In this document: positions 290 to 28,836 of the stretch, one piece after another | How positions within the stretch are numbered: the first letter of the stretch is position 1 | How the letters are laid out: the number at the start of each line of letters is the position of its first letter | Assembly: GCA_977862235.1 (NCBI GenBank) | Contig: OZ374563.1 | Location: forward strand, 806,001 to 870,000 | Reading direction: 5' to 3' | Source: Dudresnaya verticillata | Lineage: Eukaryota | DNA length: 64,000 nt | Notes under the pieces: generated by a model | What the model saw: only the letters and a program-made list of their open reading frames with translations | Database searches by the model: none | What the model was told of the DNA's origin: nothing | Position numbers and translations under genes: made by a program

Positions 290-2530
290 ATGGAATGATT
301 CCATTTAGAGCCAAGCGGAGCACCCGCATGACGTGGTCACGTGTGTCGACTTATTGTGTCACTCTCGATCGGGCATGACCCGGATGCTCCGGGTGGTAAC
401 AAACAGGCGCATGCCGATTGAAACCCATGCACGCAATCCCGTTTTTTCCTGCTAAGGGAGTTTCCCAATTGTGTCGGGATGGTTACCGACCTGGCCTCCG
501 CCGTCTTGAGGCAGCAACTACGGGTATCCGTTTTTGGCATAACCCGATAATGGGTTAGTCGAAATCCGACATTGTGTCGAGGAAGCGAGTCGGCGAAGTA
601 GGATTCGTCCAAGGGTCGCTACTGCCAAGATGGTGGCACCTGATTGGATAAATTGAATTTTGGGCAAACGGCAGCCAATCGAACTCGCAATCTTGGCGTA
701 CAGTGCGTAACTTGCGAGGACTGTCCGCACTATGGCAGCGGCTTCTCGTTGAGGTTTGACCACGCCAATTGTGCCTCAGCAGGTAACTGCAATGGGAGCG
801 CTTGTGGAATGCCGCGCAATAGCAATTCCAATTGATGCCAATGGACTTGGGCGTGAACTTCCTGTCGTGTGGGGTACCACTTTTGCGAATGACGGGCGCG
901 GGGGCATTCCCTGACCGTTGGGGTGTGTGAATGCTCAAGGCCATTAATGGCTCAGATTAGCTGTTACGGAATTCCGTTTTGAACAGGGTTGTCTTTTTCG
1001 ATTTAGCCGCAGACGGCTTGGGGGAGGCAGCAGCGGTTTGCCGTAGGCTGTGTAGGGGTGTGCCCCACATGATTTCATTAATGGGTTCTGCGGGGCGCCG
1101 CACATTGGATTGGTAGGGAGCGTCGCGTCGGTTTTGACGCGAACGTTCCGCGATATGGGATTCCACTTCTCTTGTACGACCTGCGCAAAGGCGTTCCCCA
1201 CTTCATGGGGAACGGATGCTCAAGGCCGTTGTCGGCTCGGGGTAGTCATTACGGAACTCCGTTTTGGGCATACTTGCCTTTGTTGACTTAGCCGTATTCG
1301 ACTTCGAGAGAGACGAAGGTGATCAATTGCGGCCAACCGCTAGGGTGAGTGGGTGCGCGTAGGGTGTGTCTGATTGGCGCTGCGATAATTATTATCGTGC
1401 CTGACCAATGCGATTCTACACCGTGGCGTACAGTACTCCCATTGTGTGCGCGGTGTCTACTGTGGCATCGACTCCTGAACCCGACTCTTCAACGTGGTAT
1501 GTCCACTTCATTTGCAACTTAGCAGCTGCCTGCACGCGTCCCGTTTTGGCGCTAGCCCACCATCGCCTTTTCTATCGTAGCCGGAACGCCAAAGCGTTTC
1601 CGTTTGCAGTAGGAGATGATTTGACTCCTTGGTAGATGTTGTATGGGTTCCCATGTATCAGACGACGGATACCCGTACCATTTGACTTCAAACAGAGCTC
1701 TGTATTGGCGTACTCGTGGTCCACCACTTTCTCATTGACCTGTCCAACAAGAAGGAGTAGCCGATTCACAACTACTCCGTGTGCGGATTGGCCGCAAAGG
1801 ACAGCCGCACAGCAGCAGTCGACTCTGGATCCATCTCGAGCGGTATCCCGCAATTCTCCATCGCCGCTGAACAAGTCAGCTGGCACCTCTGGACCACGGT
1901 CAGCGTATTGTTGACCGAACCCGAGTGCGATATGCGTGGGGAACTCCCCTGCTGCAATCCATGCGTATCATGACATCTGCACATTTTGTTTGGCTTCGTA
2001 ATCGACTTGAATTCAAGCTTAAGCGCGGTTACTTGACTGCGGGTTTCCGCTGGAGCGATAAACTTCGTAGCCCTACGTAGACCAGCTGATTCGTGGCGTG
2101 TTCGCCAAATGAGCCCCTCCACTTCAAACGGTAGGAGAAGGGAAATTATGGAATGATTCCATTTGAGGATAAAGTTTCGCGGATGAAGCCGCATGGGGCA
2201 CGATGGATTGAGCTTATCGAGTAACCAGTCATGCGCAAGCCGTTGGAAAACCGACAACGGTATATCGCATCGGCCTCCTCAGGGTACTTCCCTATCATGT
2301 GGAGTTGCTTGCTGACCTGGCCGTTGCCCGTTAGTCGCAGCATCTACGGATCTCCGTTTTTCGCGTAGCCCGTCTGGGACTTAGCCGAAATGCGACGTCT
2401 CTTCGGTGGGGCGCACGATAGTGCGCACGCCGAGGTCAAGGGTGACTGTTGCCAAATTCTGGGATCTGATTGGCCCCAATGTTTGGGGCCAAAGCAACAG
2501 CCAATCCTTGCACATAGCATGGCGTACAGT
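290..2530. repeat. Dispersed degenerate repeat module (3 full copies and 1 partial)
   Basis: TACGG..TCCGTTTT at 519/965/1250/2345. CTGATTGG at 640/1370/2466. TGGCGTACAGT at 694/1424/2520. TGGAATGATTCCATTT at 290/2149. Confidence 0.75.
1551..1735 (-). pseudogene. Frameshifted chromodomain from a Gypsy integrase C-terminus
   Basis: The minus strand reads EKVVDHEYANTEL, then after a 1-nt shift LFEVKWYGYPSSDTWEPIQHLPRSQIISYCKRKRFGVPATIEKAMVG*. This closely resembles the chromodomain at ~19230-19420. Confidence 0.85.
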
Positions 2531-4108
2531 TCATGAAACGCCGACCTGTCCGGTACTTCGCGATGATGCGACCGAGTCCGAGAATAGCCGACTTTCGGCA
2601 ATCATTTGGCTTGACCTGGTAGTCGCGAGGAACGCGTTCGGGTACGGGACTAAGGATCACAGGGGATTCCCCCAGAGGCAATTGCCTAACACGAGGAGCC
2701 ACTTCTACCTCAAGGAGGAGCTCATCTGCAGATGCAAATTGCCCACTTGTGGCTGCAAACTTTGTCGGGTAATCCCGTGGGGAAGTGCCTTCGCGAACGC
2801 GTTTGTCTTCGGGAAATCCCGCTCGTATTATCGACGTTTGCGAAGTAGGAACTTTCCCCCGCTTGTCGGAGACTGCGGAACAATTTCCCCTTGATTGCTC
2901 TGATTCAGAGTCTGCGAAAGGGGCTTGTCCCCAGGTGCTTGCGGATTTCCGCGATGATCTTCCACTCGAGAATTCCTCGGCAGAAGTAACGTGGCCATCC
3001 AAAGTATATGTTTCTGCTGCTGCTTGAGAAGCGGGAGCAGGAATCAGTTGGGGTGGTCCCCAAGTATACAAAGTAGCGAAATCGCTCTGGTTTTGGTTGG
3101 GACTATCTGGCAGTCCCAATAATTGTGGATTGACACCACACTGCCGTTGCCTGGACACCTCTGCCCGGCGTGACGAATTCCCAGTATCAAGTGGCTTTCC
3201 CACAATGATGCTCCGGTAGTCAAAACCGTCGAGTGTAGAACCGTCAGAACGGCGAACTCTAACATTGGGAATTCCCATTTCATCAAACGGGTCCGCGAGG
3301 GAACGTGGTATGGATAAACGCATACTGGGATGTGGTGCAAGTTTGGCAATGACTTGGTGAGGAGAAACCCTCAGTGGGAGTTGACCATAATTGGTGATAA
3401 GCACCAGGAAGGGTTTGTCAGGTTCAACCTGAACAACGCCTGCGTGAACAGTGCACGAGTGCTCTTTTTGGAAACTTGACTGTGGGATCACCACATGAAC
3501 ACCATGGCGCTTTGTCGTCACTTCGACCCAGGTCGTCGCTTGCGGACGCAGCCAAACGGGACGGGTGACTCGCATCTTAGGCGATACACGACCGCGAAGT
3601 GGAGAGTACTCCTGAGATTTTGGAAGGGGCGGTCCCCGAAGCACGCGTTTGTGCATTCTCCGAACTATTGGAACGGAGAGTCCGGAAGCTAACTCGACAC
3701 TTCTCCGGGCCGGCCATATGGCCTCGACGAAATCGTCACAAAAGTCAGCGCCGAATACGGCAGGCACGGAGAGATCTCCAACAACGATGAAGTCAACCTC
3801 CGTATGGATGTCACCGATGGCCACATGAAGTCTGGTAACCCCGAAGGTATTCAGCGGCTTTCCGCGTTCGTCTCGGTAGTCTAGCAGCGGACCGTACCGC
3901 ACTGTTGCTTCTTCTTTCAGGATTACCCGTTGTAGCTCCGACTGCCGAATAAAGTTCGGGCCAGAACAAGTGTCTAGCACCGTGACAGAACGTGTCACCG
4001 ACACCTTTGATAAGCCGAAATCGGCATAGACCGCAGCATTCCGCCCACGCATGATGCGGATTCCCCGCTTAGCACGATGTGGAAGTCTTCTCCAGGGTCG
4101 TCGTAGGG
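2436..4108 (-). CDS. Gypsy aspartic protease plus dUTPase-like region, with no RT/RNase H/integrase core downstream (deleted, non-autonomous derivative)
   Basis: LDTCSGPNFI protease motif and VFGADFCD. Collinear with 61818-63314 (LDTGAGPNFI, ILGCDFCD). The first 17 codons of ORF 2436..4160 lie inside the inserted LTR. Confidence 0.8.
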
Positions 4109-4783
4109 TGTGGTGAAGTGAAAGGCACACCTGTAAGGAGAGCTGATCAGGCAATCCCAATAAGGAGTGATCTCACACGGCACCGGGGTGGTAGAGCTTA
4201 GTTCGTAGACCGAAGGGAGTACCTCGAGCGGCAACACCTGTAAGGAGTAAAGGGACGCAACAGACAAGGGGGACGGTACAGTGCCAGGACAGATACACCG
4301 GGACGGAGGTAAGAGGAATCCGTGCACGGGGCTGGCGAGGGGAAACCGTAAAGGAGTATGAGGGTAAGGCTTAGGGTAAGTCACTTTGCCCAGGGTTGCG
4401 TACCCGTTTACTGTAGGACTCGCGGTGGCCACCCATTAATATACTGGGCGATACGCCCCGCGGTCCGGTCCGTGTGGGCCAGACCCCAATGGGTCTGGTC
4501 CACCAGGTGGGTCCGGCCCTACTGGTCCCGGTCACCGTTGCGGACATGCTCGGCATTCTTATTGGCCGGCTGACACTACGTACTGTACAGCATGATTATA
4601 ATTACCTAATGACAAATAAATCAACTACTTGACTCCTATTGGTGGTGCGCGCAGACTCCAGCAAGGCGTACAGTGCTACTGTGTCGCTGCACTCCGCTTC
4701 GGCTTTTGGCGCCAGCTCACCACTGTGCCGGGCGCGGGTCGGCTCAACCGTCATCCGCACTCCGAAACGGCCGCTTCACCACA
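4109..4783 (-). repeat. 3' LTR of Gypsy element 1
   Basis: 10-bp terminal inverted repeat TGTGGTGAAG (4109) ... CTTCACCACA (4783), with a polypurine tract on the minus strand just outside at 4786-4802. Confidence 0.85.
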
Positions 4784-4785
4784 GA

Positions 4786-4802
4786 CCCCCCTCCTTAAAT
4801 GG
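4786..4802 (-). promoter_or_regulatory. Polypurine tract (PPT) of Gypsy element 1
   Basis: Minus strand CCATTTAAGGAGGGGGG, 2 nt before the LTR's TG. Confidence 0.8.
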
Positions 4803-4939
4803 CGACACGTCCTCGTGCGCCTCAGCACGTCTTCTACAACTCCACTCAGGTGTACCCAACAACGGAGAGATCCGCATCGGCAGACTCCACTTCAGGCAGA
4901 TCAACAAACGGAAGGGTCCAAACCGGTGTACCGCTAGCG

Positions 4940-7672
4940 ATGGCGGGCGGGAACACCGACCGCGAACGGAGCCCCTTCCAACCGACACGGCGTACATCGT
5001 CGGTGGGAGCGGGTCCGGCGCCGGAGGCAGAAGAGGGAGGAGGCGGAGGACCTGCGGACACCATAGCGGGAGTTGCGGCGGCGGCGGGCACTACGCCGAC
5101 GCCGCCAGCACGTGCGGGTAGCCCGAGGGTGCCGCGGCGGCGCGATGACGGCGGGGCTCGAAAGGCGCCTACGCCGCTTCCGGATCGGCAGGTTGGGCCG
5201 GGGGCACATCGACCCGGTCTTCCAAAAGGCAACGCCGAGATGGAGTTTGGGAGTTATCATCGCGGCACTCCGCATGGGCGCTATGAGGCTTACGCGCAAG
5301 GTCCCCAGGTTGGTCAGGTTGGGGGTGGAGTAACCTCACCCCCACTCCGATTGGGTGTCGGTGGCGGACCGTCGGGTTCGCTGCCATACGCGCCGGGGAC
5401 ATCGGGGAGCTACCACGGGCGTGTGGACTCGATGGGATACACCGACGAGGGAACTTGACCTGGCCGGGAGTATGATCACCGAATCGGGCGGCGTCAGCGT
5501 ACCGAGGAGGAGCGCGATATGGTGCGTCTCCCCATGCCCGTATCGGTGTTCGTGTCCAACTATGGTGGCACCCTCGAGGGGCGTCGCTACAGTTCTGTTA
5601 CCGACGCCGGTGGGTTAATCAACAACAAACCATTTCCGAATCGGCGTGAAGAGATGTGGAGAGCCAGGTGGATTCACTCAAACTGCAGAGTGCGAACTCC
5701 AGCCGGGTGTGACATCGTGTGGCTAAGGTGCCAGGAAGAAGAAGGCTATCCCGATAAGGTGTGCCGATTGTTGGCTATGGCACATCGACTGCGAGAGCAT
5801 CCTGTTGGTGTCGAGTTCCTGTGCTACGAGAAGCCGTATGACCAAGGGGTTCACTGGTTTGCGAATCCGCGAAGGTGGTCCGACGACGCAGCGAAAGAAC
5901 ATCGACTCCGGTTGCGGAGTAGAGATGGACGCCGACTCGGAAGGGCGATACTCCACACTTGGAATACCAACGAATTCTTCCAGGTGCCGCCGGGGGCACA
6001 CCGTCGCTTGTATTGCACCGCTCCGGATTGGTGGGCTGAATATGAAGTCACCCGTTGGTTGTCAGTGCCAACGCCGACGGTGGTGGCGTACTTCTCCAAC
6101 CGGTTCATTCAGCACCGCGACTGGCAAGCTGCACACCCAGGTGGAGGGAAGTCTGTCGACCATCCGCTGATGACGGTGTTGGGTCGCATACTCCGATCGG
6201 AATGGGCCATGTTAGTCCTCTTTTCCTGGTTACAGGTCACCTACCGGGGTGTAAGAGCCAATACCAAGATGACCGGCTGGAGGGCGTACCCGCGGAGCAG
6301 CACGGATCCGGAAGGTGGCGAGTGCGGGCGCATATTCAAGCTACCCGGGCCGGTTGTCACCCTTATACACCAAGTTGGAGTAGACCGGTTGGTTGAGGGG
6401 ACCGAATACCCCTTGGCGCGTGTGGAGCGTCTCTTCGCGGTTCACGCAGACACCAATTGGGAGCGGACGCCGGGGTTCATCGGTTATCATTGGGATGAAA
6501 ACCGCGTGTTGTCGGTGCCGCCGCTCAACCCCGGGTGTGGTATGGCGTATTTCCTGTCGGAAGAAGACCCCGAGCCGGCGTGGTTGCTCGACGAGAAGAT
6601 ATCCAAACTGGCACGTGATGCGCTCCCGCACGAGGTTCTACCCCATGACGGAGGGGCCATCAAGGGCTCCGCCATCACGCGAGTGGGGTACTCCATCCGG
6701 TGTGCCGTATCAACAGGGACGCCTCGACAGTCCGCCTGCCGACGAGATTACTCCGGTGGCGGTTGACGAGATTGAGAAAGGGCGCGGGGACTCGAGGGTC
6801 CTCGTGCCAAGAGAATCCCCTGGTGGAGAAGCCATAAAGGTGTGGGGCGACTGCACGACTTCGTCACCCAAGAAGACTGTAACGGAGTCTCTTCCTGTAG
6901 GAGTGGAGATCGAGGCGCAAGGGGGCTTGTCGGGGGTGGCTGTAGCATCCACACCAATCGGAACTTCGGAACCGGCTGTCTCGCCGGCGGTCGACAAGAA
7001 CACCAAGTTGGGCAAGGCGGCGAATACCGTAGCGGCAGTTCGTCAGAAGCCCACGGTGGTAGCTGCGGCCGCGGCTAAGTTGGGTCCCGTCGGGGAGCAC
7101 GACGACTCCGAGATGGAAGAGGACGTGACACCAGTGGGGACCGAACAAGTGGAGGCACTCGCGACAACACGACCTGGAGTAGCAGTGAAGGCCCCTACAC
7201 CGAAGCGGGTGAGGTTGCCAAACCGGTGTCGCCCGCGTCGAGTGACTCCGTGACGTTTGTGGCCGCTGCGGGTCCAGGTGGAGGGCCACCCCGTCATGTT
7301 GACCCCGTGACGGTGAAGCAAGAAGAGGGTGCCCCTAAGGAGACGACGAATTGGACCGAAGCGGAGTTGCGCGTCGATGGGGCTGCCCTGCAGCGACTCC
7401 GCGAAGGGTGTAGAGATGCGGGCATGCCCCTTCCGGCGTCGGCGAACGAGGCCATTAACACCGCCGTGCTGTGGGTAGGGCGCCTGGTGCGCCTACGGCG
7501 TACCATACGCGCCTTGCGTCGACGCATGGCAGACACCGGCAGGAGGCTCACCATGATTACCGCGAGGGTATATGGTGAAGATATTCCCGACTTGGAGGAG
7601 AGTGCGGCGAAAGAAGAAGATACGGAGGCTGACCTGGCGCCGCCAGCGAAGCGTCCACGAAATGCGGTGTAA
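4940..7672 (+). pseudogene. Antisense accessory gene X1 (unknown domain X plus C-terminal coiled coil), split by frameshifts
   Basis: ORFs 4799..5458, 5519..6766, 6393..7253 and 7226..7672 tile the interval between integrase and PPT on the opposite strand. The globular Trp-rich core resembles 15730-16260 and 44870-45420. Confidence 0.7.
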
Positions 7673-7859
7673 GCGTAGAAATGCCACTTGTCAATAAAAT
7701 CTTGTGATTTTTGTGAGCCCCCCTTCCGGTGGCGGAGGGGAAGTGGAATAACACCACTGTGGAGTGAGCTCCGAAGGGGCGGGGGTACCCTACCCCCTAC
7801 AAGGCTTTGCGTCAAGTGGGCGACCACCTCGTACCAGAAGTGGTTGCTGGCTTGCCGCC

Positions 7860-8022
7860 AATTCACCAATATGGAGTAGAGCCCCTTGGGCAAGGGTTCT
7901 GTGGTTCCAGAGTCCAGAGGTCATGCCCATTTTGTACCAACGCCAAGCCACCGATATGGAGTAGAGCCCCTTGAGCAAGGGTTCTGGCAACACGGAGTCC
8001 ACGGGTCATGCCCGATTTTTCC
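7860..8022. repeat. Two-copy ~85-bp tandem duplication between the convergent X1 and integrase stops
   Basis: ATGGAGTAGAGCCCCTTG..CAAGGGTTCTG...GGTCATGCCC starting at 7871 and 7956. Confidence 0.85.
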
Positions 8023-8055
8023 AAATCTCCTACTGCGTGGGTGAGTAGCGACTGG

Positions 8056-9756
8056 CTATCGACGTGCGGGAGTTCTGCGACGTCGAGCTGCAGCGGCTGC
8101 CGTGCGCTTTCTATTCCAATAGCGGTGTATGAAGTTTTGCGGCAACTCCTCAGCGGGTTCATACGTGTCCTGGTCTGGTGGGTAGCCGTACCAACGCACC
8201 TTGTAGGTCATGCCCGTGGGTTCTTCGCGGTGTCCCACGATCTGCTCGATAACATACTCCGTGTCGACATCAATTGTCTCCGGCACGGGGGCAGAGATAC
8301 CGCCTGGCGTTTGGGGCGTTACAGTAATACCACCTGGTGTTTGGGGTACTACTGTGGTGCCTCCCGCCTGCTGGGGCACTGTACTGTCCATGTCGGTGTG
8401 TGGCGTAACCGGCGGAGCCAATAGCGGCGCCGGTTGCACGGGAACTCCAATTGGTACCTTAGTGATGCGATCGATGCTGATGGGAATCAGAACGCCATCC
8501 TTCTTGATAGTGACTACAGTATCCGTTGCGGTGTGTACCTCGTAGGGGCCCGTCGATCTTGGGAGGAGCTTCTTCATTTGCTCCGCAAACTCACCGACGT
8601 GGTCAGGGCCTTGACCGAATCGGTCGCGTTCCTTCCGTTCGGTGGGTCGTAAATTACGCGGCGGGCGATCTACGTAAACTTGATCACCACCGCGAACCAT
8701 CGGTCGGAAACGCACCTTACGGTCGAAGAGGGCTTTCGACTTCAGCTGGGCTGTAGTTTGCTTGGTCTGCGCCTTCTGTAGGGCATAGCGCAAACGCCGC
8801 ATGGTGCCCCGCTTTTGGAGTGCGGGCGTCATACGCCCCTCCGTAGCGGTTTCTTCCAACTCCACAGGGGTGCCTCGCACAATAATATCCGATGGGTGCC
8901 GAGTTAACACCAAGTCAAAGGGGGTAGTATCCGTAATCCGGTGTACCTGCATATTGTAGGAGTAGGTTAACGGCTGTAGATATAGATCCCAATCGGTGTG
9001 GTGATCCTCGACGTAGTGGCGGAGGCGCTGCGCTATGGTTTTGTTAAACCGTTCGGCTTGCCCGTTGGTTTGCGGGTGGTAGGCGGCGGTCAGCAAATGC
9101 CGCACTCCGAGTAGGGCACAGACAGCGTCGAAGAACTTCGCCGTGAACTGTCTTCCATTTTCGGTGAGTACAAATTTAGGTGCGCCATACGCATACACCC
9201 AATGGTCTAAAAATGCGTTCGCCACCACGACGGCTGTAATCGTCCGTAACGGAATGCAGCGTGTTAGTTTAGAAAACCGATCGGTGATGACCAGTACAAA
9301 GACGTATCCCCGTTTGGTTTTCGGCAGCGGGCCCAGTATGTCCGTAGCGACAAACGCCAGTGGGCCACTCGCGGGAAATAGCTTCATGAACTTCTGATGC
9401 TTAAACCGCGTGCCGTTGGTTTTGACACATGAGCGGCAACTCCGAACGGTCTCGAATACGTCGTTAGCCATATGTGGCCAATAGTAGTCTCTCCGTAAGG
9501 TGTAGTACATCTTAATACCACCAGGGTGTCCCGACATGAGGGTGTAGTGGGCAAGATACAGGACCCTGCCGCGCATCTGTTGCGGCACCACCTTTTGGAG
9601 TGCGCCGTCGAGGGCAGACTTGCGCACAAGAAACCCATGTCGGTCGTAGTCAAATTGTGATCCAGGGGACCCCACCGATTCGGCTTTAAGCTTGCAGAAA
9701 GTATCTGTTGCTTGCGCGGCTATGAACTCCTCACGGGTGAGGGTCTCATTGCGCAT
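8056..9756 (-). CDS. Gypsy integrase with HHCC, DDE core, GPY/F and C-terminal chromodomain
   Basis: HYTLMSGHPG...CRSC; DILGP; TENGRQF; NGQAERFN; TGPYEV; YVIEQIVGHR...YKVRWYGYPPDQDTYEP. In frame with 9766..11619 across a single TAA. Confidence 0.95.
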   Translation of the reverse strand: MRNETLTREEFIAAQATDTFCKLKAESVGSPGSQFDYDRHGFLVRKSALDGALQKVVPQQMRGRVLYLAHYTLMSGHPGGIKMYYTLRRDYYWPHMANDVFETVRSCRSCVKTNGTRFKHQKFMKLFPASGPLAFVATDILGPLPKTKRGYVFVLVITDRFSKLTRCIPLRTITAVVVANAFLDHWVYAYGAPKFVLTENGRQFTAKFFDAVCALLGVRHLLTAAYHPQTNGQAERFNKTIAQRLRHYVEDHHTDWDLYLQPLTYSYNMQVHRITDTTPFDLVLTRHPSDIIVRGTPVELEETATEGRMTPALQKRGTMRRLRYALQKAQTKQTTAQLKSKALFDRKVRFRPMVRGGDQVYVDRPPRNLRPTERKERDRFGQGPDHVGEFAEQMKKLLPRSTGPYEVHTATDTVVTIKKDGVLIPISIDRITKVPIGVPVQPAPLLAPPVTPHTDMDSTVPQQAGGTTVVPQTPGGITVTPQTPGGISAPVPETIDVDTEYVIEQIVGHREEPTGMTYKVRWYGYPPDQDTYEPAEELPQNFIHRYWNRKRTAAAAARRRRTPARR

Positions 9757-9765
9757 ATCCTCTTG

Positions 9766-11619
9766 TTAGATGACCGTTTGCCGGAGTGGAGTGGATGGTA
9801 CTGTCTCCTTTTCAGGCATATTATCCGTTTCGGTGTCTCCACTTTCAACGCCTAGGACAAGGCTGCTTGCGGCATCAGGCTGCTGGGTCTGTTTCCAATT
9901 GGTTAATCGCACACCATGTTGCACTACACCATTAGGAGTCGATTCCATAACGAAGCAAGGCACTTCCTCATCCAACTCAGCTTTGTCAACACCACCTGTT
10001 CGGAGTCTCGACATACCGTCTGCGAGTTGGTGCTTGATACCAGGGCGGTATTGTACTTCGAACTCAAATTCCGATAGGCGTAGGCGCCATCTAGCTAAAC
10101 GTCCAGACGCATCGGCTAGACTCAATATCCAGCGTAATGCGTCATGATCCGTACGGAGTATAAACTTTTCACCGTAAAGGTAGCGGCGTAGCGTTAGCAT
10201 ACTCCAAACGACAGCAGAGCACTCCTTTTCCGTGGTTGTGTAATTCTTCTCCGCATCGGTTAGACTTCGGCTCCAGTAACCCACTGGTAGATTATCTCCA
10301 CTAGGTTGCTCCTGGAGAAGGACACACCCAACTTGGTAATCACAAGCGTCGGTATCCAACGTATAATTGAAACCATGACGGGGTAAAGCCAATATTGGAG
10401 GGGAGATTAGATGTCTTTTTAACTCCTCAAAGGCGTTAAACTCCGTTTCGGTGAGAGGTCCAAACTCGAATACCAGACCCTTGCCGGTTTTCTTATTGAG
10501 TGGCGAAGCAATGCGTGCGAAATTGGGAACGAAGCGTCGATAGACGTTACATAATCCTAGAAAAGAGCGCAACTCCGTTTGGTTTGTAGGTGGCTTAGCC
10601 TCCTTAACGGCGAGAATATTCTTCCGTTCCACTTCCAGTTGGCCCGGGCGCACTATGTGGCCCAGATACTGTACGGAAGTGTCGAAGAAGGCACACTTTG
10701 ATAATTTCAGAGTTACACCTGCGGAACGGAGTAGCGTGAGAACCTCCTTAAGGTGTTCGAAGTGCTCCGTGACGGTGTTAGAATATACAATAACATCATC
10801 CAGGTAGAATAAGGCAAATTGCCATTTCACCGTAGATAGGATGATGTCAACCGCCCGTTGGAAAGTAGCCGGTGCATTCTTGAGCCCAAAAGGCATTCTC
10901 CGGAAGCGGTATAATCCGTAATGACTGGTGAAGGTAGTTTTGTCACGCTCCTCCTCGGGGATCTCTACTTGCCAGTAACCACTATTACAATCCAGAGTGG
11001 TGAATACTGTAGCTTCTCCAAGGGAGTCGATACATTCATCCATCCGGGGTAAAGGGTATGAATACCGAACGGTGACAGCGTTAAGACGCCTGTAATCAAC
11101 ACAAAACCGCATGGAGCCGTCCTTTTTAGGAACGAAGACCACAGGGCTGGCCCACTCCGAAGCGGATGGTTCGATCACCTTAGCGGACAACATACGATCC
11201 ACTTCTGCCTTCTCCAGCTCGCGCTGTTTATGTCCTGCCCGGTATGGTGCTTGATACACCGGTTTGGCCCCAGGCATTAATTCAATACGGTGTTTCGCGG
11301 CAGTTATATTTCCTAACTCGCCGTTCCACATAGTGCTGAACTCCTCAAGGAGTGTAACCACCTTAGCGCGGAGTTTTTCATCCTTGGCACCAATATGGAT
11401 GTTATCTTTCCAATCGGTGTCAGGGGTTGTAGTTGATTCCGATGCGGTGTTTCCTTTGAATCCATCTTGGGGTGTAGCCTTGCTGCTTTCATTAGGAGGA
11501 GTAGGAAAGGAATTAATATGTCCTCCCCCCTCCTTAAATGGAGGTACACCGTTAACGGTGAGTATGGCAGAGGGGGCAGCAGTAGCGAGGCCCACGACGG
11601 TATACTTGGGTAGCCGCAC
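9766..11619 (-). CDS. Gypsy reverse transcriptase and RNase H
   Basis: KKDGSMRFCVDYRRLN, MPFGLKNAPATFQR, YLDD, LDTDAC, EKEC, TDHDAL, ADGMSR. Confidence 0.97.
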   Translation of the reverse strand: MRLPKYTVVGLATAAPSAILTVNGVPPFKEGGGHINSFPTPPNESSKATPQDGFKGNTASESTTTPDTDWKDNIHIGAKDEKLRAKVVTLLEEFSTMWNGELGNITAAKHRIELMPGAKPVYQAPYRAGHKQRELEKAEVDRMLSAKVIEPSASEWASPVVFVPKKDGSMRFCVDYRRLNAVTVRYSYPLPRMDECIDSLGEATVFTTLDCNSGYWQVEIPEEERDKTTFTSHYGLYRFRRMPFGLKNAPATFQRAVDIILSTVKWQFALFYLDDVIVYSNTVTEHFEHLKEVLTLLRSAGVTLKLSKCAFFDTSVQYLGHIVRPGQLEVERKNILAVKEAKPPTNQTELRSFLGLCNVYRRFVPNFARIASPLNKKTGKGLVFEFGPLTETEFNAFEELKRHLISPPILALPRHGFNYTLDTDACDYQVGCVLLQEQPSGDNLPVGYWSRSLTDAEKNYTTTEKECSAVVWSMLTLRRYLYGEKFILRTDHDALRWILSLADASGRLARWRLRLSEFEFEVQYRPGIKHQLADGMSRLRTGGVDKAELDEEVPCFVMESTPNGVVQHGVRLTNWKQTQQPDAASSLVLGVESGDTETDNMPEKETVPSTPLRQTVI

Positions 11620-12403
11620 CGGTTTGGGGGAAAATTAGTCAGCCATACCTTAAAGGGTTTGTTAGGGATTACATCCATAACCCCGTTAGCCATAAGGGTG
11701 AGGTGCTTATGGATGGGTTTGGGATGGTTTTGAAGAAAACACAAACCACCGGTAGGAGTGGTGACCAATGCAAGGGATTGGGTCTTAGGGGGGATAATAA
11801 GGGATTTTGCTAGTCGGAGCTTTTGCGATACCGAAGCGGATGAAACAGGGGGCCCTGAAGAGTAGAAGCAGCCACCGTTTTGGAGTGTCTGGTTTGTCCC
11901 ATTAGCGAAACCGGAGAGTGGTGATGAAAAACAACTTTCCGTGCCGGTGGAAGGATCGCCTTGACATGGCGATCAATGAAACTGGTTCCCAGAATACACG
12001 GAGCAGCGAGGTTCGCGACCACCAGGAAGTGGACTCGAGTACGCAATTCTCCGATACGGACAAAAAGTTGAATGACACCAAGCGGGCGTATCGACCTATT
12101 GGACGCATCCCGTAAAGGTGGACTGGCAGCGGGGCGAATCAATGACAACCAGTGGCGTGGAAGCCGTCTGGCGTTAATGAGATTTGGCCCAGCACCAGAA
12201 TCTAATACGGTGATGAGAGGTAACATGAGGTCATTACTCCTTCCCACGGTAATCTGGATTTTATAATTCTGCCGCTGTAGAACACAGACAGAATCACCGG
12301 GTGGTGGAAATTCAAGGGGGATTTCTGGAACAAAATCAAGGGGGTACTCCGTAATGGCGGCGGACTGACAGTCCGGCAAAGCCCGTATTGGTGGGCGTAC
12401 CAC
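11620..12403 (-). pseudogene. Gypsy aspartic protease and dUTPase-like spacer (frameshifted)
   Basis: LDSGAGPNLI...ILGTSFI in 11810..12403. MANGVMDVIPNKPFKVWLTNF in 11313..11768. Confidence 0.85.
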
Positions 12404-12429
12404 GTCGCATTGAGGAGACGGGGACGCCC

Positions 12430-13380
12430 TTACACGTCTCCTGCGACGTTTTCCGAGTCGGGGTGCGCCATAAGTGCCTCCTCCACCATATCAGCTGGGG
12501 GCTCGCCAACCGCACCACCATCGACAGTCAGCACCCGTGCTGGGCGTTGCTGGTAGTTGCCCGGCGGACGATTTCCCGTATTGGAGTTGGCGAAGGCCTG
12601 CCGCTTGAGGAGTAGCGCTTGATAGTTGCGCTCGCGCTCTTCCATCAGGGGACCCCTTTCGGTGTCGCTCAGATACGGACAAATGACATGGTCCGGGGAG
12701 AGGCACAAGCGACAGTAGCCGCTTCCATAGAGGCGTCGAACATCCGGTGAGGTGTGATCCGTATGCTCTGCAGCAGGGGATTGTTTTCCAATACGGTGTT
12801 CGCCCTGCCCTTGACGGGGAGGCGTGTTGCCGTGGGGGTGTCCAATATGGCTGGGATGCTGCCCGGTGGTTCCCTGACGGTGTGTGGCTGGGCCGTAGCG
12901 GCTATCAGCCGGTCCGTAGCGGGGTTGCCGGGGTGGTTGCATCCGTGGCGCTGGTGGGCGAGGGTTGGGAGTCCGAGGCGAAGTAGGGTAGACAGTACTC
13001 AGTGGGGAAGAGTACGCTGTAGTAAACGTAACCCCCGACGAGGTGCCGGCGCTTCGACCCGCGCCACCTTCCATAGCGAGCACGTGCTCCTCCGATTCAG
13101 CGGGGTACTCCGAGTAGGTGTAATCCGATGGAGAACCAATCGACAGAACGCCAGAGCGTCTTGACTGACTCCTAGGTTTTCCGTCGAAGACGTGCACCGC
13201 AGAGGTTTGGCGTCTGGTTGCCCGATGGGATTCTCCAAGTCCTTTAGCGTAGCGGGTGATGGCTTGGTAATCCATGTGGGGGGTGTTGCAAGATAATTGC
13301 GCATCTGCTGACACGTTCCCGGTAGGAGTCCTTCCACAAACAGCGACTTGAGGGACCTGTCGGAGAATACTGTACCGCAT
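12430..13380 (-). CDS. Gag C-terminal part with atypical zinc knuckle (frameshifted from 12999..17147)
   Basis: CRLCLSPDHVIC. Lies directly upstream of the protease and overlaps the end of the 1382-aa ORF. Confidence 0.7.
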   Translation of the reverse strand: MRYSILRQVPQVAVCGRTPTGNVSADAQLSCNTPHMDYQAITRYAKGLGESHRATRRQTSAVHVFDGKPRSQSRRSGVLSIGSPSDYTYSEYPAESEEHVLAMEGGAGRSAGTSSGVTFTTAYSSPLSTVYPTSPRTPNPRPPAPRMQPPRQPRYGPADSRYGPATHRQGTTGQHPSHIGHPHGNTPPRQGQGEHRIGKQSPAAEHTDHTSPDVRRLYGSGYCRLCLSPDHVICPYLSDTERGPLMEERERNYQALLLKRQAFANSNTGNRPPGNYQQRPARVLTVDGGAVGEPPADMVEEALMAHPDSENVAGDV

Positions 13381-16300
13381 CGGAGTGCCTTAGTCCAAAG
13401 TTGGTTGGAGAATTGCTCTTCCGTTAAGGCCGACGTCTGTCGAAACGACGTTACGTCCGAATACCCTTCGGCAATCACCTCATCGGTAGCATAAGTCCTT
13501 AGCAAAAAGTTCACCACTTCGGTATAGGTGCGAAGCATCTCTGCTTGCTCCTCGTCGACCGCCATGGTGCCACCAGCGAGACGGGCCTGAAGTATAGCTT
13601 CAGCCTGTCCACTCAAGAAAAACTGGAAACACCACAGTGCGGTTCCTTCCGAAATGGAGTTGATGTTACACGCATCCTTGAACTTCGCGAGAAATCCAAG
13701 GACCGTGATGGGGTCTGTACCGTTAAAGGAGTGGGACTTCATTTGCACCTCCAGCTTTTCGCGGATACGTCCCATATTCTGGGACAAGCTGGAGCTGTAG
13801 TAGGAACTCCTTTTCTCCAGTCGGTATGTTCGGAAATCCAGCGCCTTCACGAACCTGTCGTTCAGGGGTCGGATCACCTTTGGGAGTGGCCTGTCGACCT
13901 CTCGGTGTTTGGCGTCGTGTTTCCTGGCCCGACGCCGCTCGTCCCTATCCGTATCGGAGTAGCTCGTATCAGAGCCAGAGGAATGGGAGGATTCATGCCC
14001 TTTTCGGCGCCTATGGCGCGACTTGCGCTTATTCTTCTTCCTGTTGCGGTGTTGGCTATCATCTGATTCCGTACCGGAGTGTTCTTCGTCCCGTCGAGAA
14101 GCGCGTTTGCTCCGTTGCGAACGGTCACGTTCCTTATCGGAGTGGAAGTCCTTGGCCTTTCTGTCAGCACTGTCTCTACCACTCCGGTCTTGGTTTTTCT
14201 TGGAGTCACCATCGGAGTGCTCACTGCCTCTACGCGAAGCCACCGGCACGGTGATACGTTCCCCCGCAGGCACTTCTGCGGGTCCAGGGACCGTACTCCG
14301 ATTCGGTTGGGGTTGGTGTGTTGGATCCAATTCGGTGTATTGAGTTTGGGTAGGTAACCCAGGGGCTGCCGCTGTCCTTACCGGATCGGGCGGAAACACC
14401 TGAGTGGGGATTTCTGGCATATACGTCGTTTCTCCCTTGACCGGGAAGTTATTCCGTATCGGTGTAGGTCCAGAAAAGGGCTGCTCCTTGGGGCCCGGTA
14501 GGGGTTGTCTGGGGATGAGCATCTGCTCGATCTCCGACGCCTGACGCTCCTGACGGATGAGCGTCTGTACCAACTCCGGAAGGTGTTTCTCCAGGTAGGA
14601 GCTAACTATAACCGGAACGGTGTCGGCGAGCGTGGTCTCAACCTCCTTCACCATGTTGGGTTGCACCTCTATGCGGAGATGCTCCAACACCCGTGGGATG
14701 ACTTCCGAAAGTATCCAATGGACACAATTGGAGTCACCTGGCTTGGATACACCCTTGCGGGAAGTGTCGGAACCAGGTCGGGATTTAGCAAGCTTGCTGG
14801 TTACACCTTTAAGGAGTTCTTCGGGGTTCTCCATACCGGGGTTCAGGTCGGCAGCATCGCCACGGCGTGCTCTCGTGGCTGAAGCTACCTCCGGTTCGGT
14901 GGGCTCACTGCGGCGTGTTCTCGCAGTAGATGGCACCTCCGGGATGGTGTTATCGTCACCGCGGCGTGATCTCGCGGTTGACGGCACCTCACCTTGATCC
15001 GATACGGTGTCCGTGGCCTCCCCATCCTTCTCTAGGGCACGCTCCGCCTCACTCGGCGGGTTGTCCGGAGCTACTTCCATGGGGTCATGAGCTGCCGTCG
15101 CACTCGCGGCCCCTGGAGCCAACTCCGTGCCCGTTGCCGCGCTGTCCTCGAGGAGGTTAGACGCCCTGTTAAGCGGGGTCGACTCCTTCGCAGGTGACTC
15201 GTGTGAACGGGCCCCACCATCGCCAGTTTCGGGTGCAGCCGCCGCTAGAATAGCGCTAAGCCGCTCTAGGAGCTCTCGCTCCGAGAGATTCAAGTCGAGT
15301 TCAACCCCGGAACGCTGCAAAAAGTCAGCCATAGCGAGCCGGGTAGGTCCGGGTGTGCCACCAGTGGCACCCGTGTTAGTCGGGGTGACGGCCTCTGCGG
15401 TCGCATCGACCAACGGTGCATCAGGCAATCTCGGAGTCTTCGCCGGCGATGAAGCAGTAGCACCCCGAACAACCATGCCCCTGGCTGACGACTCCGCACC
15501 CTCGCGCAACTCGCGTTGTGCGCGGGACCGCGGGCCGTCCAAGTCGGCATATGACGTCGGGGGAGCAGAGACGTCGTGACCCGACAAGTGGACGTTGTAA
15601 CCGTCGGAGAAATCTCCGCTACCCTCCTCATCAACCCCCTGCTCCATCGCGTCGTACAGGTAACCGGTGGGATAATCCGCCGGCATCGGCACCGGGTGCT
15701 CGCGGTGAAACCGCGCTTCGTGTTCGCCAACGATCTGGCGTCGCCAGGGGTCATACCAGACAAAGTCCCCGCAGGTGGGGTGACGCCGACCCGGCAAAAA
15801 GTTACGCCGCAGATTACTGCGTTTGTTATTTGACAGCGGCACCACCGCGGGGTCATCCCAATTAATGGTGCTATGAAGCTGCAGCAATCTGCGAAGTTCG
15901 TCGTCGTTACTCTGTCCACCGAGCACGGTGCGGAGGTCCAACGCATCTAGAAGAGACGTCACCGTCGGAGGCAAGAACCACAAGCGCAGGGTATCATACG
16001 TTTCCCAAAGCCAATGCATGGCGATCTTCGCGATGAATTCGGTGTAGGCCACCGTCCACAACCCCGTGTTCGGGTCGCTTAAGAACTCGCTCATGCAATA
16101 CCCGAACACGTTGGGTAACTCTACGAGGAAGCCCTCGCAGGTCTGGACTGCTGCCCAGGCGAGCGGTATGCCGATGTAGTACCGACGGCGGTACACCATT
16201 CTGAAGAGGGAAGCCTCGACGTGGGGATAGGCAACAAAGATGCCGAGACGTGAGCGTTCACGGCGTTCGAAGCGGATCTTGTCCCAAAAGGCGCTACCGC

Positions 16301-17147
16301 GCTTGCGGAGGTAGCGAAACTCATTTCGCAACTGGACGTCAAAGAGTAACGCCGCCTGCGAAACCCGCGGCTCACGCCCGCGCCAAGCCTGAGGGAGGTC
16401 TAAACCGGCCAGATACCACACGTAATCCACTTCACCATTCGTGCGGTATACCGCGTAATCAACGCCGAGGTCCGGCGCGATGACCCCACGACCGATGGTG
16501 CGCGTATGACGCCGGTAGACAAGGCGAGCCCAATCGCGGAACACTACGTCTAGGGGACGGTGCCGGTCGTTGAGGTGGTGAATGGGGACCGCCCCGTGGA
16601 GACGCCAGTCCTCCGACTGCAGTACATCGACGGGGAGACCCCCTGGCAAGTAACCGCCGATAACGTAACGCCCGATGATGTCCATCGCTCGACAGTCGCG
16701 TGGGTGAAACCACGGTGCACGCGCAAATAAGTCGAGGTCCTGCGCCACCTCCATGCCGACGAACTCTGCAGGACGCGGGTACTCGATGGTCGGCGGGGCC
16801 GGTGCGACAGGAATGGGGACAAACCCCGATGATGAGGTCGCCGCGTACGTCGACGGCGACAGATGCGATGCTTGGGATCCGGGTACCGGGGCATTCCCCG
16901 TTTCCTGTAACAACGGCGCCGGTGTCGGCGGAGGCAGTGAAGTCAGGAATGGCGCCGACGACGGCAGGGCAGGAACCGGTGGTAGACGTGGGACAGCCGG
17001 TAGCTCGGCGGTCACGTGCGCAGCAGCCAACGCAGGTTGCGGCACCGGGGCGGATGTGGCGACAGGCGCCGATGGGTTGGGCTGGATCTCCGAGAAATCT
17101 TCCGCGTCCGTCGTACCCGGCGCCGCCGCCGACGGGGGTTGGCTCAT
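12999..17147 (-). CDS. 1382-aa ORF: domain-X protein (17147 to ~15240) fused in frame to Gypsy Gag (~15200-13290)
   Basis: The C-terminal part is capsid-like (FNGTDPITVLGFLAKFKDAC...EVVNFLLRTY...LFVEGL). The N-terminal part contains domain X. Confidence 0.75.
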   Translation of the reverse strand: MSQPPSAAAPGTTDAEDFSEIQPNPSAPVATSAPVPQPALAAAHVTAELPAVPRLPPVPALPSSAPFLTSLPPPTPAPLLQETGNAPVPGSQASHLSPSTYAATSSSGFVPIPVAPAPPTIEYPRPAEFVGMEVAQDLDLFARAPWFHPRDCRAMDIIGRYVIGGYLPGGLPVDVLQSEDWRLHGAVPIHHLNDRHRPLDVVFRDWARLVYRRHTRTIGRGVIAPDLGVDYAVYRTNGEVDYVWYLAGLDLPQAWRGREPRVSQAALLFDVQLRNEFRYLRKRGSAFWDKIRFERRERSRLGIFVAYPHVEASLFRMVYRRRYYIGIPLAWAAVQTCEGFLVELPNVFGYCMSEFLSDPNTGLWTVAYTEFIAKIAMHWLWETYDTLRLWFLPPTVTSLLDALDLRTVLGGQSNDDELRRLLQLHSTINWDDPAVVPLSNNKRSNLRRNFLPGRRHPTCGDFVWYDPWRRQIVGEHEARFHREHPVPMPADYPTGYLYDAMEQGVDEEGSGDFSDGYNVHLSGHDVSAPPTSYADLDGPRSRAQRELREGAESSARGMVVRGATASSPAKTPRLPDAPLVDATAEAVTPTNTGATGGTPGPTRLAMADFLQRSGVELDLNLSERELLERLSAILAAAAPETGDGGARSHESPAKESTPLNRASNLLEDSAATGTELAPGAASATAAHDPMEVAPDNPPSEAERALEKDGEATDTVSDQGEVPSTARSRRGDDNTIPEVPSTARTRRSEPTEPEVASATRARRGDAADLNPGMENPEELLKGVTSKLAKSRPGSDTSRKGVSKPGDSNCVHWILSEVIPRVLEHLRIEVQPNMVKEVETTLADTVPVIVSSYLEKHLPELVQTLIRQERQASEIEQMLIPRQPLPGPKEQPFSGPTPIRNNFPVKGETTYMPEIPTQVFPPDPVRTAAAPGLPTQTQYTELDPTHQPQPNRSTVPGPAEVPAGERITVPVASRRGSEHSDGDSKKNQDRSGRDSADRKAKDFHSDKERDRSQRSKRASRRDEEHSGTESDDSQHRNRKKNKRKSRHRRRKGHESSHSSGSDTSYSDTDRDERRRARKHDAKHREVDRPLPKVIRPLNDRFVKALDFRTYRLEKRSSYYSSSLSQNMGRIREKLEVQMKSHSFNGTDPITVLGFLAKFKDACNINSISEGTALWCFQFFLSGQAEAILQARLAGGTMAVDEEQAEMLRTYTEVVNFLLRTYATDEVIAEGYSDVTSFRQTSALTEEQFSNQLWTKALRCGTVFSDRSLKSLFVEGLLPGTCQQMRNYLATPPTWITKPSPATLKDLENPIGQPDAKPLRCTSSTENLGVSQDALAFCRLVLHRITPTRSTPLNRRSTCSLWKVARVEAPAPRRGLRLLQRTLPH

Positions 17148-17420
17148 AGTTGCGGGTAGCGGATGACCGCGAAGGGGCGTGGTGCGGGAACACGCGGGGA
17201 GCCGCGCCGCGACTGACGTTCAAGCAAAGCAAGCACGCGGAGCGCGCACATCGGTCGTCGAATTTGGAAAGCGGAGAGCCGCGGTCAGCAGCAGACGAGT
17301 CATCAAGACGGCGGCGGGGTTGTTGCTGCGCGATACAATCGGAGATGACTCCGCAGGCAGAGGGATGACACTGCACGATGAGGGGTGGCACAGCGGGTTT
17401 CGCTCTTAGGAGGGGGGCGA

Positions 17421-18261
17421 TGTGGTGCAAGACCCCGGGGAAGAACCCCGTTTTATATCGCTACACCCGCTCGCGCGGTGAGTGGACGACGTTACACGCG
17501 GATCACCCGCGACTATAACATACGCCGATTACCGGCAGCTTGGATGGGCCCGTGCGCGGATGCCGCGCGTGCGAGATCCGGCCAATGGTTGACGCGCCCT
17601 TGGCACGGTGCACGCGCGCCCGTACAGCACGCGCCAACAGCACACACGGGTGACACGTCTCCACGTGTACACGCGTAACATGCGCGCCGAATATATCCGA
17701 GGGAATCCTCGCTCGGGTGCGCCCCAGCAATGCGCACCCTTAGATTACACTGGTTTACAGTGCGGTAGTAGTATTTCTACGCTAGGTATTTTTGCGCGAT
17801 ATTTTAGTGAGCTCGTGGTGCGCGCGCATGCCAAGTGTCCAGCGCACGGCGCCACACACGCGCGCGCATCTCCCGCGGGGGATACTTAGTATACGGGGTG
17901 AACCCCCCCTCACAGTAAAGCGCCAAGCAGGCCTAGGGACTCGAGGATACCCCCACCTTCGCACCCGGTGACGACACCGTGCGCGACTTGGGCTTACGTA
18001 CCCCGTTCTACTGCCTGGCTTCAACAGCACTCAGCGGCGTAATCGCCTTCATCGTTCTACGTGTACTACGGCACTCCAACGTGGGCCGGGGATTTAAAGT
18101 CGGCCCCGCCCACGTTTCAACCACCCGGGGCACACCCCGTGTCCCTAGCTCTACCACCCAACCGGCGCCGACCTCACCGTCGCCGCCTGCTACCAACCCG
18201 TGGGAGGACCACTTCGAACTCTGGTTCTGGGGTTGCGCCCTTGCTCGGGCGTGGCACCACA
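17421..18261 (+). repeat. 3' LTR of plus-strand Gypsy element 3
   Basis: TGTGGTGC...GCACCACA termini, with PPT AGGAGGGGGG at 17408-17417. 17640-18230 is clearly similar to 24310-24915. Confidence 0.85.
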
Positions 18262-19443
18262 CAGGTCTCACGGACTTCTTTACCGAAGGCTGCTGCCGTT
18301 TCGGGGAGTACCCCCGCGAGCTGCGAGCCAGCAATGGAAGGAGGCGGAACGCAGAACTCTGCAGTAGCTGCGGGTTTGACAAGTGTCGCACTGGCTTCGG
18401 TACCATCGAATTCCGCGCGTGGATTGGCTGATTTGGCGCCACAGGGCGATCCCCGAATTGGCAACCGCCAATCTAAAGCACGAATTATGACGAGGGTACC
18501 CTCGGCGCTGAGCACAGTACCACCCCAGTCGATCGCGACGTCAAGTCATCCGGCGTCATCGCCAAAAGGTGCACAACGACGCAAAAATGTCGGTTCCGGG
18601 GATCGACCCCCGCTTACTGCTCGGCTTGGTCAGCCACTATCCCGAGGTCGTCCTCGAACATCCTTCGACGCGGAAAACCGCGATACAACTCCTGTTTCCC
18701 CAGCGTGTGGCGCTGAAGCCAACACGGGGACAACTCTGATGACTAACTCCGCTCGAGGGGACGACAACATCGGGGATATAACCCCGTTTGAACTCGGTAT
18801 CAACACCAGAAGGAAGGTCGCCACAACGCGTGGAACGGGCACCAACTTCCCAGCCAAGCCCATGCCCGAGGTTCCCACGGGCACAAGTGACGGCTTGTGT
18901 GGTGTCCGCGACTATCAAGCTGGAGGAGACTCCGATTGCGACCAGAGTACGCAGAGCGCCTCGACGCCAACGCCCATCGAGGTCAACCCTAGAGCAGAGT
19001 CTGTACCTGCGCTCCCACGCCGACTCGCACTCCTACGACAAACGACACCGGGGTCAACCTCGTATGAGATACCAAGTGGCACCGCCGCCCCACGGCGCGC
19101 AACGTTTGGCCACAGGTGGTCGGACCACCGCATCGTGGAGATACCCACGTTCATGACGCATTATAACGAGGCTCACCCTCGCCTGAGAGCAGGACTCCTA
19201 CTGCTGCCCCCTCCACCGCGGGGACCCCGCGCGCGTAAAGTGGTTGACCATGAGTATACCGACGAAGTTCTCTTCTTCGAGGTTGAATGGTTCGGGTATC
19301 TGAGTTTCGCTAACACACTCGAACCCATCGAGACCCTACCTCGCAGTCAGGTCCTGCACTATTGCCGAAATGCCAAGTTGGGAACACCCAGTATGATACA
19401 TACTGCCATGGTCGGCTCACGTCTAATGCACATCCAACACTAA
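18262..19443 (+). CDS. Low-complexity linker plus chromodomain (3' end of pol of plus-strand Gypsy element 4)
   Basis: RKVVDHEYTDEVLFFEVEWFGYLSFANTLEPIETLPRSQV. The nominal ORF start (18061) lies within the preceding LTR. Confidence 0.75.
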   Translation, partial: QVSRTSLPKAAAVSGSTPASCEPAMEGGGTQNSAVAAGLTSVALASVPSNSARGLADLAPQGDPRIGNRQSKARIMTRVPSALSTVPPQSIATSSHPASSPKGAQRRKNVGSGDRPPLTARLGQPLSRGRPRTSFDAENRDTTPVSPACGAEANTGTTLMTNSARGDDNIGDITPFELGINTRRKVATTRGTGTNFPAKPMPEVPTGTSDGLCGVRDYQAGGDSDCDQSTQSASTPTPIEVNPRAESVPALPRRLALLRQTTPGSTSYEIPSGTAAPRRATFGHRWSDHRIVEIPTFMTHYNEAHPRLRAGLLLLPPPPRGPRARKVVDHEYTDEVLFFEVEWFGYLSFANTLEPIETLPRSQVLHYCRNAKLGTPSMIHTAMVGSRLMHIQH

Positions 19444-23145: not shown

Positions 23146-23297
23146 GAGAAAAAAGTGGTGATTTGGCAGCAGGAGTCTTTTCTTGAAAAGCTATCACTCC
23201 CTACAAATCTGGCGATATGGTATTTTCTGCATGCACCCACTGCACACCCCTTTTGGTTTCCGGGGGAGCCCCCTGAGGCGCGCGCACTATATGCGCT

Positions 23298-24257: not shown

Positions 24258-24942
24258 TGCGGTGCAGCGACCAGACCCTCTTTTTGCGCGGACGCCCGCT
24301 GTTTTACACTCACACACGTGTGCCCATTCACCCACGTGTATACGCGCACACGCGCGCCACATATATCCGAGGGAGTCCTCGTACGGATGCGCGCCAACAA
24401 TGCGCACCCTTAGATTACACTGATTTACAGTGCGGTAGTAGTATTTCTACGCGAGATATTTTTGCGCGATATTTTAGTGAGCTCGCGGTGCGCGCGCATG
24501 CCAAGTGTTAGGCGCACGGCGCCAGACACGCACGCGCACCTCCCGCGGGGGATACTTAGTATACGGGGTGAACCCCTCTCTCAGTAAATCGCAAAGTCCG
24601 CAGCAGAGTCGAGGGTACCCCCGTACTTGCACACGGTGAAGTCACCGCCTGCGACTCGGGTTACGTAACCCAACTCTTGCTTGCGCGGCCCAACCGCTTC
24701 GTTCATCCTACAGCCGACGTCGGCGTTGCTGTTCGTGGATCTGAACCACGGTTAACCACCAACGTGGTCGGGGCTTTACAGTCGACCCGACCCCGTTGTT
24801 TCTACGTTCCGGGGCACACCCCGTGCTCCGTGCTCTACCACCACACCGGCGCCCGCCTCAAAGCGTGGCGCCTACTACCATCGTGGGAGACCACTTGAAC
24901 ACTGGTTCTGGGGCAATCCCCGTCTTTGGGTGTTGCACTACA
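24258..24942 (+). repeat. 3' LTR of plus-strand Gypsy element 4
   Basis: PPT GAAGGGGGGG at 24245-24254. Termini TGCGGTGCA...TGCACTACA. Homologous to the LTR at 17421-18261. Confidence 0.8.
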
Positions 24943-24987
24943 CTTATCGGTGTCACCAGTGATGGAAGCGATTTCACATTCGCGGAC

Positions 24988-28812: not shown

Positions 28813-28836
28813 CCTCATAAGGAGAGAGTGACGAGA

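Follow-up and report, generated by a model that had tools for sequence, protein, structure and literature searches.

How does one protein domain come to lie antisense behind the pol gene of a retrotransposon, in frame ahead of a Gag and inside a DNA transposon, and what could it be doing there? The question is raised by a 64,000-nucleotide stretch of Dudresnaya verticillata (assembly GCA_977862235.1, contig OZ374563.1, positions 806,001 to 870,000 of the forward strand), which we call the window and in whose own numbering all positions are given. A preliminary description, made from the sequence alone, had singled out three segments, X1, X2 and X3, as copies of an unannotated domain X, and the three peptide strings it quoted for them are found where it placed them. 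We put at about an even chance the explanation that X, a real domain of about 390 residues that folds autonomously, is carried by transposons as a trans-acting accessory factor and is not part of the transposition machinery. The domain is found antisense behind a chromovirus pol twice (in the window and in L001, a contig from elsewhere), fused to Gag once, and inside CACTA-type termini. The three genes, and the stretches of them that carry the domain, are as follows.

4799-7672, plus strand: X1 gene remnant, one frame of 958 codons, final stop at 7670-7672
5657-6472, plus strand: X1 stretch matching the family profile (hidden Markov model, HMM, 5657-6121; extended by hhalign to about 6472)
12999-17219, minus strand: X2, linker and Gag in one uninterrupted frame of 1406 codons, first ATG at 17147-17145
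15630-16802, minus strand: X2 domain, 391 amino acids, the segment that was folded
44290-47775, minus strand: X3 gene, one frame of 1161 codons, single internal TAG (45331-45333) inside the domain
45067-45597, minus strand: X3 stretch matching the family profile (HMM 45208-45438; hhalign)

The first part of the question is whether the three segments are related at all. Compared pairwise with BLASTP they are weakly similar, at 20-22% identity and with E-values of 1e-3 for X1 and X2, 6e-5 for X1 and X3 and 0.033 for X2 and X3. The profile evidence is firm. Alignment A3, which holds 50 family sequences that are each 25-39% identical to X2, matched X1 in hhalign with a probability of 97.8% (E 6.9e-13) and X3 with a probability of 94.6% (E 7.3e-8). 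An HMM made with the window's own X2 row left out, and so from relatives in other organisms only, was run on the six-frame translation of the window and recovered X2 at 455.2 bits, X1 at 35.1 and X3 at 25.2, against best scores of -4.0 for reversed decoys and -2.5 for five sets of block-shuffled decoys. No X copy beyond these three was found in the 64 kb. As a negative control, the X profile was compared with the Gag profile in hhalign and gave a probability of 0.1%, by which the idea of X as a diverged capsid was ruled out. All three segments map onto the same profile positions (19-512 for X2, 115-266 for X1 and 181-266 for X3 in HMMER, with hhalign lengthening the match of X1 to position 354 and that of X3 to 323). 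Because of the hhalign matches with A3, the HMM scores relative to the decoys and the Gag control, we take the domain common to X1, X2 and X3 to be real on sequence grounds, with a length of about 390 amino acids. The three segments are thus one family, as had been proposed, and the motif put forward for them corresponds to its best-conserved blocks. The proposed core of about 175 amino acids has to be revised, the actual domain being about double that length (15630-16802 in X2). A FastTree tree pairs X1 with X3 (support 0.82) on very long branches, and we do not rely on this grouping.

The family reaches far beyond the window. The X2 segment initially had two relatives at 34-36% identity, and a three-sequence profile of X2 and these two, searched against 1.84 billion cluster representatives, retrieved 1438 at a threshold of E<=1e-3, of which 646 also passed E<=1e-10 and 145 passed E<=1e-30. 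Some matches in the weakest tier may be to flanks of low complexity, and so we count the family as at least 646 representatives. Among the 50 members of A3 one column, a glutamate, is invariant and about 25 are nearly so, the conserved columns including many acidic and arginine positions. The invariant glutamate is residue 179 of the 391-residue X2 segment and is flanked by arginines. The domains are rich in arginine and tryptophan with a net charge near neutral, a composition that does not decide whether they have a nucleic acid or chromatin role. A typical member is a stand-alone protein of about 550-750 amino acids in which a disordered N-terminus precedes the X domain, and the chain then runs through a disordered, acidic linker to a short C-terminal motif that is conserved and is followed by the stop. 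A motif search extracted 26 tails from the 50 members, and by our reading about 11 of them have this motif (...RRFL..VG....ELRGY.RGR...) near the stop. The longest of the top 150 matches has 893 amino acids, and the contigs encoding members measure 2.1-7.8 kb. No X relative was found in the viral contigs or in the prokaryotic genome contigs that were searched, and a metagenome scan for X gave a single locus, L001. In our reading the family is a eukaryotic one, large and without a name, whose members are carried by transposons.

The domain had been described as unannotated, and this holds for the scanned family members as well. X1, X2 and X3 match no Pfam family at E<=0.1, and nothing credible was found in the 153 members scanned (38 at E<=0.01 and 115 at E<=0.001). 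In one member a match to GGN (Gametogenetin) at 16 bits lies below the cut-off and was treated as spurious. An AlphaFold2 model of the 391-residue X2 domain, made with A3, is mostly helical and confident, with a predicted local distance difference test (pLDDT) of 93.1 and a predicted template modelling score of 0.91. No structural relative of this model was found: the best Foldseek E-value was 3.7 against the PDB and 3.1 against BFVD, the best VIA-align Z was 2.6 among 48,161 chains, none of the Foldseek rows reached Z>=2 on re-examination, and the ESM Atlas gave no usable match. A sequence profile search of the PDB with X had a best E-value of 0.58. These absences from Pfam and from the fold searches prove neither a new fold nor the exclusion of any family. 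No description of the domain came up in the literature searched. The X domain is well folded in the model, and neither Pfam nor the solved structures offer it a detectable match.

The second part of the question concerns the elements in which the domain is found. X1 and X2 lie next to or inside a Gypsy element, the features of which are listed here.

7856-8025, strand not assigned: 85-nucleotide tandem repeat, two copies, between the pol stop (8056) and the X1 3' end (7672)
8056-9765, minus strand: Gypsy integrase with C-terminal chromodomain (Pfam Integrase_H2C2, rve, Chromo), convergent with X1
9766-11634, minus strand: Gypsy reverse transcriptase and RNase H (Pfam RVT_1, RT_RNaseH)
12430-13389, minus strand: continued Gag frame of close relatives, entered in this copy through a frameshift at about 13275-13284
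13275-13952, minus strand: capsid core of Gag, in the C-terminal part of the X2 open reading frame (ORF; residues 1090-1315 of P0002)

Pfam confirms the Ty3/Gypsy chromovirus order of reverse transcriptase, RNase H, integrase and chromodomain on the minus strand at 8056-11634, where the reverse transcriptase/RNase H ORF and the integrase ORF share a frame and are separated by one stop. The preliminary description had spoken of two Gypsy antisense ORFs in different long terminal repeat (LTR) elements. This is right for X1, which is antisense to pol and convergent with the integrase-chromodomain ORF. X2 is on the sense strand, the same as that of the Gypsy gag-pol, where it stands upstream as an in-frame N-terminal extension of Gag. 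This Gag belongs to the same Gypsy that lies next to X1, and the assignment of the two copies to different LTR elements is not supported.

Several lines of evidence bear on the fusion of X2 to Gag. Residues 1005-1315 of the X2 ORF match 31 proteins, 30 of them at 47-77% identity over the aligned stretch and one, more distant, at 28%. Many of the Gag relatives begin at the position equivalent to residue 1115, and in those read at sequence level a CX2CX4HX4C zinc knuckle is present. Pfam gave no gag match. A model of the Gag core, of low confidence (pLDDT 59.7), was used for a fold search in which ranks 1-10 were all Arc or human immunodeficiency virus (HIV) capsids and the lower ranks were mostly capsids of HIV, murine leukaemia virus or PNMA2, the match being weak with a best E-value of 0.02. 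After the X2 domain there is a degenerate copy of the C-terminal motif of the family (about 15240-15347), and from there to the Gag homology about 345 codons pass with no stop. By our own estimate, at about 60% G+C, such a run has a probability of about 1e-5 by chance, and we therefore regard the X2-Gag fusion as a real reading frame. A TATAAAA run is found about 300 nucleotides upstream of the X2 ATG on the minus strand.

The core of X1 sits in ORF 5459-6766 (plus strand). Its frame has four internal in-frame stops (TGA at 5456-5458, 6764-6766 and 6773-6775, and TAA at 7076-7078) and no frameshift, so it is a decayed gene. From the 3' end of X1 to the stop of the integrase-chromodomain ORF there are 384 nucleotides, which hold both copies of the 85-nucleotide repeat. 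The antisense position downstream of pol, which had been pointed out before, recurs in L001, a 5.4-kb metagenome contig in which an X ORF of 748 amino acids and an integrase-chromodomain ORF converge, the X ORF ending 177 nucleotides short of the stop of the other. The integrase of L001 is 38% identical to that of the window. Because the layout is seen twice, in sequences that are otherwise unrelated, the antisense location of X behind pol is unlikely to be due to chance. A more specific placement of X1 and X2, just inside the polypurine tract, could not be upheld: neither a search for ungapped repeats nor blastn at word sizes 11 and 7 found an LTR pair bracketing 4799-17219, and so no polypurine tract can be placed. 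Purine runs after the pol stops of the window and of L001 were noted by eye only. Just upstream of X1, on the opposite strand, is an ORF of 578 amino acids (2439-4172, minus) with no Pfam match, in which a D-T-C-S-G motif like that of retroelement aspartic proteases can be seen by eye.

The third copy belongs to another class of element. The features around it, besides the X3 gene itself, are the following.

35697-35713, plus strand: left CACTA-type terminus, CACTACGAAGGCGATTT, 17 nucleotides
48505-52260, plus strand: long ORF between the CACTA termini, 1250 codons interrupted by one stop, oriented divergently to X3
53221-53237, minus strand: right CACTA-type terminus, identical to the left terminus in inverted orientation

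X3 is nearly intact, its frame comprising ORF 44290-45330 (minus) and continuing upstream across the TAG into ORF 45331-47775. The terminus motif, with up to 3 mismatches allowed, is expected 0.12 times in the window and was found four times, two of these being exact and forming the pair that encloses X3. X3 lies between CACTA-type inverted termini, in line with its earlier assignment to a DNA transposon, and the family is present, as had been claimed, in elements of class I (Gypsy chromovirus) and class II (CACTA-type termini). From this co-occurrence an exchange between the two classes, as proposed before, may be inferred. Judged by eye only, the long ORF between the termini resembles a transposase. 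CpG and repeat-induced-point-mutation-type indices showed no mutation signature. The other two matches to the terminus motif, at 21008-21024 (plus) and 63653-63669 (minus), have 3 mismatches each and are mutually inverted. A 233-nucleotide tandem repeat of 2.6 copies (43043-43650) lies about 600 nucleotides past the 3' end of X3, so that a tandem repeat is found just past the 3' end at both X1 and X3.

Comparison with known systems can help to narrow down what the domain might be. VANC proteins, to which X had been likened in the preliminary description, are anti-silencing proteins of the VANDAL (Mutator-like) elements of Arabidopsis, and like X they are accessory, non-transposase proteins carried by a transposon. 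The carriers of X are Gypsy and CACTA-type elements and not Mutator-like ones, and no sequence or fold link to VANC was found in a comparison that rests on Pfam and used no VANC sequence. A closer likeness in layout is offered by the plant Retand lineage of Gypsy elements, where antisense additional ORFs encode Transposase_28 (TRP28, PF04195) and the stretch after pol that holds them often contains tandem repeats (PMC11963269). X1 too is antisense to pol in the stretch after it, the window has tandem repeats there (2 x 85 nucleotides, 7856-8025), and for the Retand ORFs, as for X, a regulatory role is suspected (PMC11963269). However, X1, X2 and X3 have no Pfam match at E<=0.1 and hence are not TRP28. 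Retand is a non-chromovirus lineage (PMC11963269), whereas both carriers of antisense X, in the window and in L001, end in a chromodomain. A further difference is that X is also found fused to Gag on the sense strand, and within a CACTA-type element. The antisense X genes lie 384 (X1) and 177 (L001) nucleotides from the pol stop, with no 3' LTR located.

Two further comparisons draw on the same source. HBZ of human T-cell leukaemia virus type 1 is a retroviral antisense protein, a small basic leucine zipper, whose gene, like X1, lies near the 3' end on the strand that does not code for gag-pol (PMC11963269). A gene so placed would be expressed independently of the genomic RNA. Unlike HBZ, X is a 390-residue domain with no detectable PDB match (best Z 2.6). 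Additional ORFs of plant Gypsy elements are described there as lying upstream or downstream, in sense or antisense, and X2 resembles the upstream sense ones in its location ahead of gag on the sense strand (PMC11963269). It differs from them in being fused in frame to Gag, and in that the same domain is found antisense behind pol.

What the domain does can be approached from the combination of its settings. One and the same X module would appear to ride on elements that transpose by unrelated chemistry, and its antisense form behind pol would be expressed separately from the genomic RNA, off the other strand. For these two reasons a trans-acting accessory factor seems to us the most likely of the explanations considered, and for the same reasons its role is probably a general one in the conflict of transposons with their host. 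X would then be a putative nuclear regulator, binding nucleic acid or chromatin, which would favour the expression of its carrier or its escape from silencing.

A number of observations weigh against this explanation. Of the three copies in the window two are broken, X1 with four internal stops and X3 with one. The Gypsy copy is itself degenerate, with the gag frameshift at about 13275-13284 and the stop between RNase H and integrase, and in the absence of an LTR pair X1 and X2 are not placed within the borders of a Gypsy element. The recurrence of the antisense layout comes from L001, which is the only outside locus examined. On the CACTA side the termini lack a 3-bp target-site duplication, as the flanking triplets, GAC and TGG, differ, and the ORF at 48505-52260, in which an En/Spm transposase domain was looked for, has no Pfam match at E<=10. 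The close Gag relatives yielded no X2-like partner, and word-index searches of limited sensitivity, over proteins of 215-685 and 773-2461 amino acids, found nothing above 36% identity to X2 and, in the longer range, no long fused X forms. Because of these two results the X2-Gag fusion may be a one-off.

The alternatives can be weighed against the same evidence. The one that survives best, although we consider it unlikely, is that X is the sole protein of an independent selfish unit of about 2-3 kb which inserts into, or is targeted by, transposons, and is possibly its own mobility enzyme with a new fold. Stand-alone ORFs of 554-893 amino acids on contigs of 2.1-5.5 kb, often just a few hundred bases longer than the ORF, would fit such a unit, as would the absence of a fusion to any known domain in the 153 members scanned. 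The TATA-like run about 300 nucleotides upstream of the X2 ATG, the many conserved acidic and arginine columns with their invariant glutamate, and the lack of any matching known fold point the same way. However, the spacing of X from a convergent chromovirus pol stop is similar in two unrelated sequences (177 nucleotides in L001 and 384 in the window), no terminal repeats are seen around any X copy, and the short contigs may be mere transcripts or assembly breaks. We find it rather improbable that X is a structurally new, ancient module that hops from retrotransposons to DNA transposons and back, a portable factor for counter-silencing or expression from which any carrier would draw the same benefit against its host, or else the enzyme of an unrecognised mobile unit that parasitises transposons.

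It is also doubtful, to much the same degree, that X is a host gene family whose copies are passive cargo of transposons, or just lie in transposon-rich DNA, and have no role for the carrier. Capture of host genes is known for CACTA-type elements, both X1 and X3 have become pseudogenes, and the Gag relatives come with no X2-like partner, all of which is what passive cargo would lead one to expect. Set against this are the great size and divergence of the family, which are typical of mobile genes, the repetition in L001 of the placement relative to pol, and the X2 frame, in which no stop interrupts 1406 codons even though this Gypsy copy has damage in both gag and pol. We give still less credence to X being a matrix-like, structural N-terminal part of Gag that directs particles or pre-integration complexes, with the stand-alone and antisense forms derived from it. 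The position of X2, in frame ahead of a capsid-fold Gag and joined to it by the stop-free run of about 345 codons (chance about 1e-5, our own estimate), is what such a part would look like, but the common form of the family is a stand-alone protein that ends in its own conserved C-terminal motif, none of the top 150 matches is longer than 893 amino acids, and X3 is in a DNA transposon with no Gag. That the similarity is due to chance or composition, with no shared domain, can practically be dismissed, since the pairwise identity of just 20-22% and the E-value of 0.033 between X2 and X3 are outweighed by profile scores far above those of reversed and shuffled decoys, by hhalign probabilities of 97.8% and 94.6%, and by the mapping of all three segments to the same profile positions.

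The rest of the window holds further traces of transposons. A Harbinger-type transposase ORF (DDE_Tnp_4; 21176-22063, plus) abuts a DUF6818 ORF (22060-23190, minus), and DUF6818 may be the second protein of a Harbinger-type element at 21176-23190. A direct repeat of about 570-580 nucleotides (17661-18232 and 24332-24913, 79% identity) enters the N-termini of two plus-strand ORFs and may represent LTRs or shared 5' regions. The mostly low-complexity ORF at 18043-19443 (plus) ends in a weak chromodomain match (E 0.008) and may be a remnant of another chromovirus pol. The ORF at 24745-27918 (plus), of 1057 amino acids, has no Pfam match; by eye its C-terminal part shows an H-x-D ... H arrangement like that of 2-oxoglutarate/iron dioxygenases. 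A tandem array of about 130-nucleotide repeats, with 4-5 copies at 65-93% identity, occupies 28221-28837. Additionally, there is a Copia-type reverse transcriptase (RVT_2) at 53610-55879 (minus) and a second Gypsy integrase at 59577-60605 (minus), the latter with no X domain nearby in the HMM scan of the window.

Extra genes of plant transposons, including those antisense behind pol, are already known, and their functions are largely unsolved. X stands apart from these in that it is confidently folded in the model and strongly conserved, has hundreds of divergent relatives and yet no Pfam entry or solved relative, and appears in three different genetic settings inside one 64-kb window. The family deserves a database entry, which would end the anonymous annotation of such ORFs. 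If X is an accessory factor, it would provide a tractable handle on how different classes of transposons deal with their host, in the form of one domain with clear conserved residues and with natural fused and unfused forms.

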